Positions 6,608 to 12,450 of a DNA stretch of 64,000 nucleotides are shown piece by piece. The notes beneath the pieces were generated by a model that made no database searches, had not been told where the DNA came from, and saw only the letters and a list, made by a program, of their open reading frames with translations. Origin of the DNA: a virus. Its lineage: Duplodnaviria; Caudoviricetes. The DNA is taken from positions 256,001-320,000 of IMG/VR virus record IMGVR_UViG_3300021431_000076; one strand, 5' to 3'. A program made the position numbers and the translations under genes. Each line of letters opens with the position of its first letter. Position 1 is the first letter of the stretch.

Positions 6608-7267
6608 ATGAAGTTGATTGTAGTAGTAGATTTACAGAATGAATTCCTTGGTTGGCAACCTGAAGAGATTAAGAAATCTCTTCCAAAGAAAGTGGTGGAT
6701 TATCTAAAAAATCAAATGGAAAAGAGTGATCATACAAGAATAATATGTACTCGTGATACACATCTTGAAAAAGATTATAATGAATATTTTGAATCTTGGA
6801 CTTATCCAATTCATTGTGTTCGTGGTACTTGGGAATGGGAATTAGCAGATGAGCTTGAGGCATTCATGAATGATAGAGCCTATAAAAAGTGCTGGGTAGT
6901 CAATAAACCTACTTATGGAGACTATTCTGATATACTGGGACTTAAAAGACTCTTTAGATGGGAATTTGACGAAATTGAAGTAGTTGGTCTTACAACAGAT
7001 ATTTGTGTATTGGCTACTATGGTTATGCTCAACTGCCTATTCCCTAAAGCAGAATTATCTGTTATTGATGAGCTTACTTATGGTACTTCTGAAGAGAAGA
7101 AACAGCATGCTTATCAAATAATTAATTCTATGGGATTCCATATCAAGACACTTCAGGGATTTGATTATAATACTCCTGAAGCATGGGAAGATGAAGCTAT
7201 CGAAAATAAAGTTATTGATAAGTGTTTTGAGATGGCTGACAATCTTAAAGAGAAGGATGATGAATAA
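6608..7267 (+). CDS. pncA: nicotinamidase / isochorismatase-family cysteine hydrolase
   Basis: VVDLQNEF, TRDTH, PIHCVRGT, NKPTYG and GLTTDICV motifs (D-K-C triad with metal ligands). Confidence 0.8.
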   Translation: MKLIVVVDLQNEFLGWQPEEIKKSLPKKVVDYLKNQMEKSDHTRIICTRDTHLEKDYNEYFESWTYPIHCVRGTWEWELADELEAFMNDRAYKKCWVVNKPTYGDYSDILGLKRLFRWEFDEIEVVGLTTDICVLATMVMLNCLFPKAELSVIDELTYGTSEEKKQHAYQIINSMGFHIKTLQGFDYNTPEAWEDEAIENKVIDKCFEMADNLKEKDDE

Positions 7268-9870
7268 TGAGAAAAATGATCATCATGAGGGGCTTACCTG
7301 GTTCTGGTAAGTCCACATGGATTAGACAACATGACCTAGAGGACTATACTCTATCTCCTGATAATATTAGAAAGATTGTTGCTAATCCTGTCATGAGAAT
7401 AGATATTCCATACTTCACTGTAGATCAGACTAGAGATTTCATTGCATGGGGTATTCTGTTTGATGTTCTGGAGCAGAGAATGCAGAGAGGTAACTTTACT
7501 GTTATTGATGCTACAACTCTTACTGCAGACCAGTTCAATAGATATAAAAAGCTTATTGAGAGATATAAGTATAGAGCATTGATAGTAGACTTTACTGATA
7601 TGCCTCTAGAAGAGATCAAGAAGCAGAATGCAGAAAGAGCTAATACAGTAGGTTATGTTCCTGAATGGGCTATTGATAGGCTCTATACCAGATGGGAGAA
7701 TACTGAAGAGTTTATTAAGTCTAATAAGTTTAAGATTATTAAGCCTACCGACTTCTATGAGTTTGATAAGTTCATGTCTATGAAACCTCTTCAGCTAGAT
7801 GAAATGGGTTTCAAGAAAGTAGTATTCATTGGTGATATTCATGGTTGCTGGTCTGCATTGAATAACTACTTTAAGGATACTACTCCTAATGATCATCCTG
7901 ATACATTCTATATATTCTTAGGTGATTATTTGGATAGAGGCCCTGAGAATGTGGAGACTTTCAAACACTTATACGATTGGAGGGAATGCAAGAACGTCTT
8001 ATTACTGCAAGGTAATCATGAAGATCATTGGAAGAATTTTGTTCATGATAATATACCAGATGATGCTTATGAGAAGATTGATTTCTTTAAAGAAACTCTT
8101 CCTCAGTTAACTGAAGCTGGTATCACTAAGAAAGATATCGCTAGATTAGCTGATAGACTTGGTCAGTGTGCTTACTTGCAGAATAAGTTTACTCAAATTT
8201 TAGCTACTCATGCTGGTATCAATGGTATGATTAAAACTTATGAAGATGGTAAGAAGATAGCTACTAGCTTCTATGATTCTTATTTCCTTACTAAGATGAA
8301 TACCTATCAAATGGTACATGGTGTTGGTGGATATGGTGATGTAAATAAGATTGCTGAACAGTGGGAAGAATTCATCAATGTTTCTAAAGGTCAAATCAAA
8401 GGTGGAGAATTCAAATTCTACCAAATCTTTGGTCATAGAAATGATGATAAACTTCCTGTTCAAGTATCTGAACATGTCTTCAATTTAGAGGGTGGAGTAT
8501 CTATCCTTCTCAATGAGAATGCTAGACTTAGAATAGTAGAGTATGATGTTGAGAATGATACTATGACTCCTGTGGAGGTCATAAATCCTAAGTGGAATAT
8601 AGGTTATGAGAATACTCCTAATCCTCATACTGCTCTTATCAAAGATAGAATGATTAGAGCTAAGGGTCTTATCAATGTGAAGAGATTGCATGATAATGTA
8701 TGTGCATTCAACTTCTCTCATGATGCTTGGTATTCTAAAGGGTGGAATAGTCTTACTTGTACTGCAAGAGGATTGTTCATAGACGTGGAAAAGAATGAAG
8801 TAGTTGCTAGATCTTACGATAAGTTCTTCAATTACAAAGAAAGAAGAGAGACAAAAGATCTTGATCAGATGCTTAGACATATCAAGTATCCTGTAAGTGT
8901 ATATGAAAAATATAATGGCTTCCTTGGTATTCTTTCTACATACAATGGAGAATTACTGTTTTGCAGTAAGTCTGAGGATCATTTATCCACTTACAAGAGT
9001 AATAGCGATTATGTACCTCCTCTTGGTAAGAAGATTGAGTATGCCATTAAGGATGGTCTGCGGGCTATTATCCCAAAAGAGAAGCAAGAAAAGTTAAAGC
9101 ATTGGTTTGATGAGCATGAATATTATTCCATGTCTAGAATAGTAAATAAACATCTTATCGACCATAGACAACCATCTAACTGCATGGCTCTTCTCTTCAA
9201 AGAGAACTTTGAAAAGCTTGTTCCTATAGAAACTCAGGAGAAGATTAAGAAGTTCTTACTAGAAAAGAACTGCTCTATGCTATTTGAAGTAATTGATCCT
9301 GAAAGAGATCCTCATATCGTTGTATATGATAAACCTAGAGTAGTATTACTTGATATCGTATATAATGATATTGAGAAGCCAGCAACTCTCTTCAGTTATA
9401 AGAATCTGCAGAATCTAAATAATGGTGTCTTCCATATTGATCTCAAAGAGCAAGTAGAAGTCATTAAAGATGAAGAACATTTTAGAGCATTTGTAGAAGG
9501 ATTCTATGGTTCTACTCATCTTAACAAAGAAGGATTTGTATGTAAAGATGCTGAAGGATTCATGCTCAAGTTCAAGACAGCAGATTATAAGTTCTGGAAA
9601 TGTATAAGAACTATGCTTGATAGTATCAATGATAGTGAGTATGGAGCTGTTCCTACATTCAAGCATACTTGTCCTTACTTATCTGCTGAATTTGATTCTA
9701 CTGTGGTTCAATACTATAGTGAAAAGTTTGATAATCTACTAGAATTCTTATTAGAAAAGTTTGGTCAAGAGAGAAGAGATGAACGTATAATATTACCTCC
9801 TAACTTCTTAATCAAACCAGATGGTAGTAGATACAATCTTATCGAAATTCGTAAAATGGCAAACATGTAA
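7267..9870 (+). CDS. polynucleotide kinase / metallophosphoesterase / RNA ligase (Rnl1-type) RNA repair enzyme
   Basis: GLPGSGKS and VIDAT kinase; GDIHG, GDYLDRG, GNHE phosphoesterase; ARGLF..VVARSYDKFFN, EKYNG, EGFV and LKFK ligase motifs. Confidence 0.88.
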   Translation: MRKMIIMRGLPGSGKSTWIRQHDLEDYTLSPDNIRKIVANPVMRIDIPYFTVDQTRDFIAWGILFDVLEQRMQRGNFTVIDATTLTADQFNRYKKLIERYKYRALIVDFTDMPLEEIKKQNAERANTVGYVPEWAIDRLYTRWENTEEFIKSNKFKIIKPTDFYEFDKFMSMKPLQLDEMGFKKVVFIGDIHGCWSALNNYFKDTTPNDHPDTFYIFLGDYLDRGPENVETFKHLYDWRECKNVLLLQGNHEDHWKNFVHDNIPDDAYEKIDFFKETLPQLTEAGITKKDIARLADRLGQCAYLQNKFTQILATHAGINGMIKTYEDGKKIATSFYDSYFLTKMNTYQMVHGVGGYGDVNKIAEQWEEFINVSKGQIKGGEFKFYQIFGHRNDDKLPVQVSEHVFNLEGGVSILLNENARLRIVEYDVENDTMTPVEVINPKWNIGYENTPNPHTALIKDRMIRAKGLINVKRLHDNVCAFNFSHDAWYSKGWNSLTCTARGLFIDVEKNEVVARSYDKFFNYKERRETKDLDQMLRHIKYPVSVYEKYNGFLGILSTYNGELLFCSKSEDHLSTYKSNSDYVPPLGKKIEYAIKDGLRAIIPKEKQEKLKHWFDEHEYYSMSRIVNKHLIDHRQPSNCMALLFKENFEKLVPIETQEKIKKFLLEKNCSMLFEVIDPERDPHIVVYDKPRVVLLDIVYNDIEKPATLFSYKNLQNLNNGVFHIDLKEQVEVIKDEEHFRAFVEGFYGSTHLNKEGFVCKDAEGFMLKFKTADYKFWKCIRTMLDSINDSEYGAVPTFKHTCPYLSAEFDSTVVQYYSEKFDNLLEFLLEKFGQERRDERIILPPNFLIKPDGSRYNLIEIRKMANM

Positions 9871-10581: not shown

Positions 10582-11283
10582 ATGGCTACTAAAGAAGTGC
10601 TTACTATTGCTCAGATTATTGCTGAGTGTAAGTCTACACAAAATAAAATCTTCACTGTCATTGGTGATAGAGATTTTCGTCTAGTAGAATATTATATTAA
10701 GGCTAAGCCTTATATTGGTGCTCGTAACATTGCAGAAGAAGAAGAAAGAATCACTTCTGATGCTGATAAGATCTCTGATCTTATGGTTCGCCTTGATGCT
10801 CTTACTAAAGCTCGCATTAAGGCTAATGCTGAAACTATGGTTAAAGTTCCTGAGCAGCTTTCCCTCAAAGATCTCTTTGCAGGTAAAGAAGCTAAGGTAG
10901 AAGAGATCAGCATTGCTGAAGCTATTAATCGTAAGAAGTACTATATAAACTTCATGAAGTCTATTATAGCTAACTTCGAACGTCAGCTTTCTAATGCATC
11001 TTCTCGGAAAGGTCAGCTTGAATATGAGGCTGCTAATCTTGTCAATCATGACCTTGACCAGCAGTTCCCTCGCGATGTTCAAAAGAACTGGTCTACGGAT
11101 GCACAGAAAAAAGCTCGTGAAGAGCTTGAAAAGAAGTATGAAGTAGTTCGTCTTGATCCTAAAAACATCATTTCGAATGACTCTATTAATAAGCTCAAAA
11201 CTTCGGTAATGGACTATATTGATAAGATAGATACTACTCTGTCTATCATTAATGCTAAGACTGAAGTCACCATTGAGTACTAA
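10582..11283 (+). CDS. alpha-helical coiled-coil protein (resembles DUF6847/DIP1984-like hypothetical proteins), candidate RNA-binding oligomer
   Basis: LTIAQIIAE, SIAEAINRKK, LDPK and IDTTLSIINAKTEVTIEY pattern; own early promoter at 10535; frequent CGT/GCT codons suggest high expression. Family assignment is from memory, not a search. Confidence 0.6.
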   Translation: MATKEVLTIAQIIAECKSTQNKIFTVIGDRDFRLVEYYIKAKPYIGARNIAEEEERITSDADKISDLMVRLDALTKARIKANAETMVKVPEQLSLKDLFAGKEAKVEEISIAEAINRKKYYINFMKSIIANFERQLSNASSRKGQLEYEAANLVNHDLDQQFPRDVQKNWSTDAQKKAREELEKKYEVVRLDPKNIISNDSINKLKTSVMDYIDKIDTTLSIINAKTEVTIEY

Positions 11284-11287
11284 TATC

Positions 11288-11995
11288 TGATAAGTTTATT
11301 GCTTGGGAGACCAAAATATAAAATCAATCAACCCTTTTCTTTACTTGAGAAGTTGGTTCTTTTGGGGTTATAAAAGAACTTAAATTCTCTTAATGAATTC
11401 TTTAGAAAAAAAGAATCAGCGACTCATAATCGCTACATAATAAGGCAGATAAAGCAACGATCTTTTAAATCGTGTTAGCTTATCACATCTGGCATTAATA
11501 TAAAGATATGCCACCAGGAGACTTTAAACCTTTAAAGATTTAAATTTATAAAGTCTAAACTTTTAAACCTTTAAAAAGCCCCTCCAGAATTGACAGGCTC
11601 ATATAGATACCTAATAGCAAAGGGGCACTTTAACTTTATAAACTTTTATAAACGATTGGCAATAATATAATTTAAAACTTCCAATCATTATAAACCTTTA
11701 AAGATTTAAACTTATAAACCAAATCCTATACTAGCAACACTGTTACTCGAAGAGGGTCACTGAGGTGTTTGATTGACCTCAAATATCAGTTATAGGTGAT
11801 TAACCTGAGCATAAATTTATAAATAAAATGAGATTGCAATTTATTATCATCTTTGTAGCGAATCAAATGCTGCATGGTAGCTACGGTAATTTTTCCAGAA
11901 CCTAGCTCTAGTTTACATTTAAATTTAATCTCATTGATTTGCCGTTAAATTAAATTATTGATTGGATGGCAAAGTCGCGTAACTTAAAAAATCAT
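11288..11995 (+). ncRNA. putative large structured ncRNA with internal AAA-periodic repeat tracts
   Basis: no ORF of 60 aa or more over about 760 nt; more than 10 stems; 5-prime TAAGTT (11291) can pair with 3-prime AACTTA (11981); terminator directly after. Confidence 0.7.
11521..11723 (+). repeat. three tracts of about 8-nt (NNNNT-AAA)n repeats
   Basis: 11521-11577, 11627-11652, 11687-11723; exact 20-mer TAAACCTTTAAAGATTTAAA at 11525 and 11691. Confidence 0.8.
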
Positions 11996-12000
11996 ACACT

Positions 12001-12048
12001 AAATACAGGTAGACTCCTTGTGAGTCTACCTGTATTTTTTCTTTTTTT
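12001..12048 (+). terminator. intrinsic terminator
   Basis: AAATACAGGTAGACTC/GAGTCTACCTGTATTT plus long T-run. Confidence 0.85.
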
Positions 12049-12105
12049 CAAGCATATATTATAGTAGTGATGAATGAATGTATTAAAAGAAAGGAAGGAT
12101 TCATC

Positions 12106-12450
12106 ATGATGGAAAACAAAGTAGTCGTAAACCTCTGCCCGCATCCGATTAACATTATTGCTTCTGATGGGAGCATCCGTAACTTTCCTAAATGTGAGGT
12201 ACCTGCAAGGGTATCCCAGTCTGAGGAAGTGGTTGGAAACATCCTTGGGGTGGAAATCACTCGCCAGAAGTTTGGCAAAGTTGAAAACCTTCCCGAGCCA
12301 CAGGAAGGTACTTATTTGGTTGTATCTCGCCTGGTTGTTGCGGCAGCTCAGGCAGAAGGGAGGGATATATCTGATCTGCTAATTCCTGGTCCTGGTGTAC
12401 GGGACGAAGAGGGACGGATAATAGGAGCCAAAGGCTTCTCCGTCCTGTAA
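12106..12450 (+). CDS. small conserved-looking phage protein (NLxPHxI...DLLxPG..VRDxxGRIIG), function unknown
   Basis: SD AAGGAAGG; own promoter and GGGGCTTCGGCCCC terminator; visibly GC-richer than neighbours. Confidence 0.7.
   Translation: MMENKVVVNLCPHPINIIASDGSIRNFPKCEVPARVSQSEEVVGNILGVEITRQKFGKVENLPEPQEGTYLVVSRLVVAAAQAEGRDISDLLIPGPGVRDEEGRIIGAKGFSVL

Follow-up and report, generated by a model that had tools for sequence, protein, structure and literature searches.

Ring-shaped RNA-binding proteins read short triplets repeated at a fixed spacing on single-stranded RNA, with TRAP recognizing (G/U)AG units 5-6 nt apart in the trp leader and HutP recognizing UAG units 7 nt apart in hut RNA, where the sites are also split into two blocks. 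A second kind of repeat-bearing RNA is represented by the CsrB/RsmZ and CrcZ sponges, in which many copies of a GGA motif or of A-rich ARN stretches without strict phase lie in unpaired segments between hairpins and titrate host CsrA or Hfq. ROOL and GOLLD are large, ornate RNAs of phages or prophages, often next to tRNA genes and of unknown function (PMC5737381), with no reported phased 8-nt tract and no fixed protein-gene partner. Finally, RAGATH-27 (Rfam RF03100) is an 86-nt orphan motif of unknown function whose unpaired 5' part already contains A-rich units. Here we examine a locus that recalls each of these systems in part, namely, a set of evenly spaced UAAA repeats within a 64,000-nt stretch (henceforth the window) corresponding to positions 256,001 to 320,000 of the 332,775-bp IMG/VR jumbo phage record IMGVR_UViG_3300021431_000076 (about 30% G+C).

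Phased UAAA repeats in a gene-free region of a jumbo phage

The repeats lie in an 820-nt gene-free gap between a 233-aa gene (10582-11283, + strand) and a 114-aa gene (12106-12450). The former matches phrog_1491 (2e-18), which is wrongly labelled "tail fiber protein," and has no Pfam family. Between positions 11521 and 11723, 14-15 units with a UAAA core, mostly 8 nt apart, form three tracts: tract 1 (11521-11577), with seven 8-nt units; tract 2 (11627-11653), with three units spaced by 8-10 nt; and tract 3 (11687-11723), with four units and a terminal A-run. They are separated by two GC-clamped hairpins, hairpin A (11578-11626; GC-rich stem of 5-6 bp) and hairpin B (11654-11686; 6-bp stem and variable loop). 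Tandem Repeats Finder reported a period of 8 over 11522-11575, and a 28-nt block at 11525-11552 recurs at 11691-11718 with 96% identity. The observation made in an earlier note is thus confirmed, as all three tracts read exactly as it had transcribed them, and only its description of the core as T-AAA requires correction: the conserved core is UAAA preceded by U at position -2 and followed by C or G.

Chance can be excluded as the source of this pattern. A chain of seven UAAA at 7- to 10-nt spacing occurs once in both strands of the genome, against only two stray four-unit chains elsewhere, and the density of T[TA]TAAA also peaks here. The autocorrelation of A-runs at lag 8 is 0.56, above all 100 shuffles, whose maximum was 0.47. 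In agreement with the earlier note, the repeats are not a CRISPR array, in which direct repeats of 23 nt or more alternate with unique spacers of similar length, because the units are 8 nt long with 2- to 4-nt spacers. The possibility that the UUUAAAC units are -1 frameshift heptamers was dropped because no ORF runs across them.

A closed, pseudoknotted RNA surrounds the tracts

To place the tracts in context, we searched with the upstream protein and retrieved contigs encoding its homologs, which yielded 13 homologous loci (designated here by L numbers) from rumen and gut metagenomes, with the partner protein 43-97% identical and a 700- to 850-nt gap right after the gene in each. Alignment of these loci and analysis with RNAalifold define a closed structured RNA of about 513 nt (11299-11811, + strand), starting 15 nt after the stop of the 233-aa gene. 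It is closed by helix P1 (11300-11313 with 11797-11811), which shows compensatory U-G to G-C and G-C to A-U changes, contains G-U pairs that fit only the + strand, and has 100% of cells paired in six other clades. A pseudoknot, PK1 (11331-11335 with 11364-11368, the latter in the loop of hairpin 11356-11379), shows C-G to U-A changes in five sequences, with 97% of cells paired in other clades. Hairpin A displays many compensatory changes, and a core hairpin (11761-11781) shows covariation. The conserved core is enclosed by a long-range helix, Px (11725-11730 with 11791-11796), into which the terminal A-run of tract 3 leads and in which one pair changes from C-G to U-A between clades. Both strands fold better than their shuffles (z of -5.25 and -6.16), so that fold energy alone does not give the strand, whereas the G-U pairs and an intrinsic terminator do. 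The latter comprises a perfect 16-bp stem followed by a U run (12001-12047).

The 3' tail between P1 and the terminator (11812-12000) is variable and is not conserved even in the sister phage, which has a 342-kb genome and is 87% identical over the RNA. Within this tail, a 60-nt stretch (11852-11911) is 87% complementary to the mRNA of the phage's own PhoH-like ATPase gene (G000:171521-172234, where G000 is the phage genome; PF02562 at 7e-31) at G000:C1:171660-171719. The sister phage has the phoH gene but lacks this segment in its RNA tail; the segment may be a recently acquired antisense module. A conserved internal motif (GAGAAU-like on the 5' side and CCUAUAGCA-like on the 3' side) recurs in hairpin A of all clades, with a copy in hairpin B of the L063 clade, and may be a second recognition element.

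No Rfam family matched the window or seven related loci at gathering or permissive thresholds, with only a nonsignificant RAGATH-35 alignment (E of 5.5). ROOL and GOLLD gave no covariance model match in the window or in the seven related loci. Searches of GenBank phages with blastn and megablast found no match. Scans of IMG/VR with the repeat pattern returned mostly simple 8-nt minisatellites, and scans of IMG/VR and JGI metagenomes with a core pattern returned only the sister phage and false positives. The loci reached through the downstream 114-aa gene (L010 to L014) carry no such RNA. No tRNA lies in the window or in the related loci, and the genome has one tRNA-Arg. Literature searches found no description of this RNA.

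Conservation of the repeats across homologous loci

The absence of the repeats at homologous loci had been put forward in the earlier note as an outcome that would overturn its proposal; we find instead that the repeats, their 8-nt phase, the tract lengths, and the unit number are conserved in the 13 loci, down to 43% identity of the partner protein. Every one of about seven clades keeps the phase, with lag-8 identity of 0.54-0.69, and the invariant alignment columns in tract 1 are the U and A of UAAA, while the spacers drift. The unit logo is [C>U][U>C]U[U/A]UAAA[C>G], and 44 of 58 spacings are exactly 8 nt. Tract 1 measures 56-61 nt, with 6-8 A-runs, and tract 2 measures 24-29 nt in all members, whereas tract 3 measures 37-41 nt in 12 of 13 members and 26 nt in L054, for a total of 12-16 A-runs. 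In contrast, hairpins A and B vary from 48 to 89 nt and from 16 to 73 nt, respectively. In the sister phage, the spacers change while UAAA stays, and the hairpin A stem changes in a compensatory way. The most divergent member, L100 (partner protein 43% identical; truncated contig), keeps the core but has much shorter A-rich tracts, together with a stretch (within L100:772-1267) that resembles a tRNA T-arm, although ARAGORN calls no tRNA.

The strand-specific, covarying helices around the repeats also bear on whether they act on double-stranded DNA as iterons, a partition site, or a packaging site. TTTAAA is a palindrome, and AT-rich direct repeats are typical of origins. However, besides being embedded in an RNA with G-U pairs that work on one strand only, the repeats have an 8-bp phase that does not match the DNA helical repeat, which also led us to discard DNA bending; no replication initiator gene is found among the neighbors, and distant relatives (see below) keep only the A-run on one strand. 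A DNA-level role is therefore very unlikely.

Are the tracts paired or single stranded?

An alternative with some support is an RNA-only role, in which the tracts form long, imperfect A-U helices (tract 1 with tracts 2 and 3, that is, 7 units against 3+4) or donate A-minor or strand-swap contacts, either of which could build a compact fold or a homo-oligomeric RNA assembly as seen for ROOL, GOLLD, and OLE. Minimum free energy folds do pair tract 1 with tracts 2 and 3, the arms 11523-11549 and 11684-11710 are 81% complementary, and the unit count of 7 against 3+4 and the matching strand lengths are conserved. Further, large phage RNAs near tRNA genes self-assemble (bioRxiv 10.1101/2024.12.08.627333; PMC5737381).

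Several results nevertheless argue against specific tract-tract helices. RNAalifold leaves all tracts unpaired while recovering P1, PK1, hairpin A, and the core hairpin with compensatory changes, and no covariation is seen between tracts. The spacers are C-rich and G-poor on all tracts, with a G/C ratio of 0.47 against 1.09 in the rest of the RNA, so that they have no G partners. In the window, four pairing registers tie for best, and at aligned columns only 60-63% of cells pair in six other clades, against 83-100% for P1, PK1, hairpin A, and the core hairpin. Cognate tract pairs form duplexes no better than noncognate pairs taken from different clades (-8.95 versus -8.22 kcal/mol and -20.0 versus -18.2 kcal/mol). 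In the sister phage, UUUAAA changes to GAUAAA with no compensating change. U3A3-type units can still pair with each other in many registers (about -20 kcal/mol in cofolding), so weak or transient helices are not excluded; the comparative data thus favor unpaired tracts while thermodynamic folds can pair them, and without probing data, this analysis does not choose between the two states. On balance, we consider the RNA-only reading unlikely, though it is the strongest competitor of the one presented below.

A wider family behind phrog_1491 homologs in distant phages

A tblastn search with the homolog from PVP-SE1 found relatives in 749 phage records, spanning Gram-negative and Gram-positive hosts; the gaps behind this full set were not collected or aligned clade by clade, and R-scape was not run on them to test for covariation between tract halves. 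In T5_ev212, JBP901, Vibrio phage Bennett, phiPsa347, Lactococcus phage P1048, PVP-SE1, and XaC1, the gene is followed by an unannotated gap of 360-500 nt. The locus lies among or next to tRNA genes in six of the eight distant phages examined, next to a peptidyl-tRNA hydrolase in XaC1, and next to an RtcB ligase in Dulem virus 39. Significant A-run phasing at 7-8 nt is present in T5, PVP-SE1, Dulem virus 39, phiPsa347, and P1048, but it is not detectable in 4 of 12 gaps tested, namely, those of XaC1, JBP901, Bennett, and one jumbo clade (L061). In T5 and PVP-SE1, the tract is one uninterrupted run of 8-11 YAAA(G) units that has neither the U3A3 palindrome nor a complementary strand and lies just 5' of a Px-like helix inside an RNA closed by a 19- to 20-bp helix. 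This is the strongest argument that the A-run, rather than a U3A3 duplex, is the functional unit and that the hairpins of the jumbo clade are insertions into one ribbon, which fits the suggestion in the earlier note that the hairpins loop out of a contiguous tract.

In Dulem virus 39, RF03100 scores 77.2 bits (gathering score, 76.1) at a position 11 nt after the stop of the phrog_1491 homolog, equivalent to that of the 5' end of the window RNA. The window RNA itself does not match RF03100 at the gathering threshold, at E values up to 10 over 11200-12200, or over 11284-11400. The Rfam motif covers only the first 86 nt, and the closed 350- to 520-nt RNA, its phased tract, and its protein partner are not part of that description. 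A covariance model built from Px and the core of the jumbo clade finds only L100 (E of 0.0016) and not the T5 or PVP-SE1-type RNAs; hence, the deep relationship rests on synteny and shared architecture, not on a scored match.

The gene and the RNA stay adjacent in every locus examined, whatever lies upstream, although this adjacency was found by searching with the protein, so RNA copies lacking the gene would have been missed. Two genes upstream of the RNA in the window is an 867-aa fusion (7267-9870) of a P-loop kinase, a metallophosphatase, and a T4 Rnl1-type RNA ligase, i.e., a Pnkp-RNA ligase RNA repair enzyme, which is conserved at this position in several clades but is replaced by NrdD/NrdG genes in others. 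Downstream, the first gene after the RNA in L065 (L065:1648-1989) codes for a STIV_B116-like protein (PF08960; E of 1.5e-7), a family that includes viral ring nuclease anti-CRISPRs. The 114-aa gene of the window in the equivalent position has no Pfam hit and no similarity to the L065 protein.

The candidate binding protein

The AlphaFold model of the 233-aa protein (pLDDT of 87) shows long helical hairpins clasped by a small four-stranded sheet, with no recognized RNA-binding fold. Foldseek and VIA searches with this model gave only 3kdq, a protein of unknown function (Z of 11.5), and generic helical hairpins, and PDB sequence, Pfam, and Atlas searches gave nothing useful. The protein has conserved basic residues but a near-neutral pI of 5.9-8.5, and modeling of three copies as a complex gave no verdict. 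Nothing identifies it as an RNA-binding protein, and nothing excludes that either. It is not a TRAP, HutP, or Hfq relative, and Pfam finds no TRAP, HutP, or Sm/Hfq domain in the 10 neighboring genes.

Phased registers for a phage ribonucleoprotein?

On the basis of these observations, we suggest that the three tracts are one functionally continuous, largely single-stranded ribbon of about 120 nt, carrying 14-15 phased registers with the consensus [C/U][U/C]U[U/A]UAAA[C/G], one every 8 nt, and held in a fixed frame by the closed RNA, with the two hairpins as clade-specific insertions that loop out. In this view, each register most likely serves as a docking site for one copy of a protein, so that the tract would act as a ruler fixing how many copies load, and the most likely binder is the phrog_1491 protein encoded just upstream on the same transcript. 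We assign this reading a probability of only about 0.42. The repeats, their phase, their conservation, the surrounding RNA structure, and the gene-RNA linkage are demonstrated by the analysis, and single-strandedness is an inference from it, but protein binding was not assayed, and the identity of the binder, the stoichiometry, and the biological role, which is possibly related to tRNA or RNA repair given the genomic contexts, are not shown by these data. The interpretation in the earlier note, that each unit is a register for one protomer of the upstream protein by analogy to ring-shaped binders such as TRAP and Hfq, is therefore partly supported: conservation, linkage, and the comparative evidence favoring unpaired tracts agree with it, while evidence that the protein binds the RNA, forms a ring or any oligomer, or reads one unit per protomer is lacking. 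Relative to TRAP and HutP targets, the locus shares a short conserved core at fixed spacing with variable spacers, but the core is UAAA at 8 nt, the candidate binder is an unrelated helical protein, and there is no attenuator logic, as the tract sits inside a stable closed RNA.

A further possibility is a decoy or sponge, in which repeated single-stranded A/U-rich sites titrate a host RNA-binding protein or nuclease, such as S1, Hfq, an endoribonuclease, or an anticodon nuclease, while the coencoded protein acts otherwise, for example, as a chaperone or in processing. The layout of short motifs between hairpins resembles that of CsrB/RsmZ and CrcZ, the genomic context is rich in tRNA or RNA repair genes, and some units read like anticodon loops (e.g., CUUUUAA), a resemblance only. 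However, the motif is neither the GGA of CsrA nor the ARN triplets of the Hfq distal face; the tracts contain 5% G and no GGA repeats, the A-runs are 8 nt apart rather than in triplet phase, and phase and tract length are strictly conserved. Further, the breadth of hosts would require a single host target to be universal, and the strict linkage to one phage protein is left unexplained. We regard this reading as unlikely, and slightly less so the RNA-only role considered above; the remaining probability belongs to explanations not listed here.

The broadest version of our proposal, which is doubtful but not excluded, is that the phrog_1491 protein and this closed RNA form a previously unrecognized, widespread phage ribonucleoprotein, in which about 8-15 protomers would line up on the phased YAAA ribbon, one per 7-8 nt, with the RNA as a molecular ruler and the particle working in tRNA or RNA repair biology. 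If the reading is right, hundreds of sequenced phages, including T5-like, PVP-SE1-like, Bastille-like, Vibrio, Pseudomonas, and Lactococcus phages and gut or rumen jumbo phages, encode an abundant, defined-size ribonucleoprotein of unknown function, present even in classic, tractable phages such as T5, whose RNA has so far been seen only as an 86-nt orphan motif. The recurring placement among tRNA genes and RNA repair enzymes suggests a link to the contest between phage and host over tRNAs and translation.
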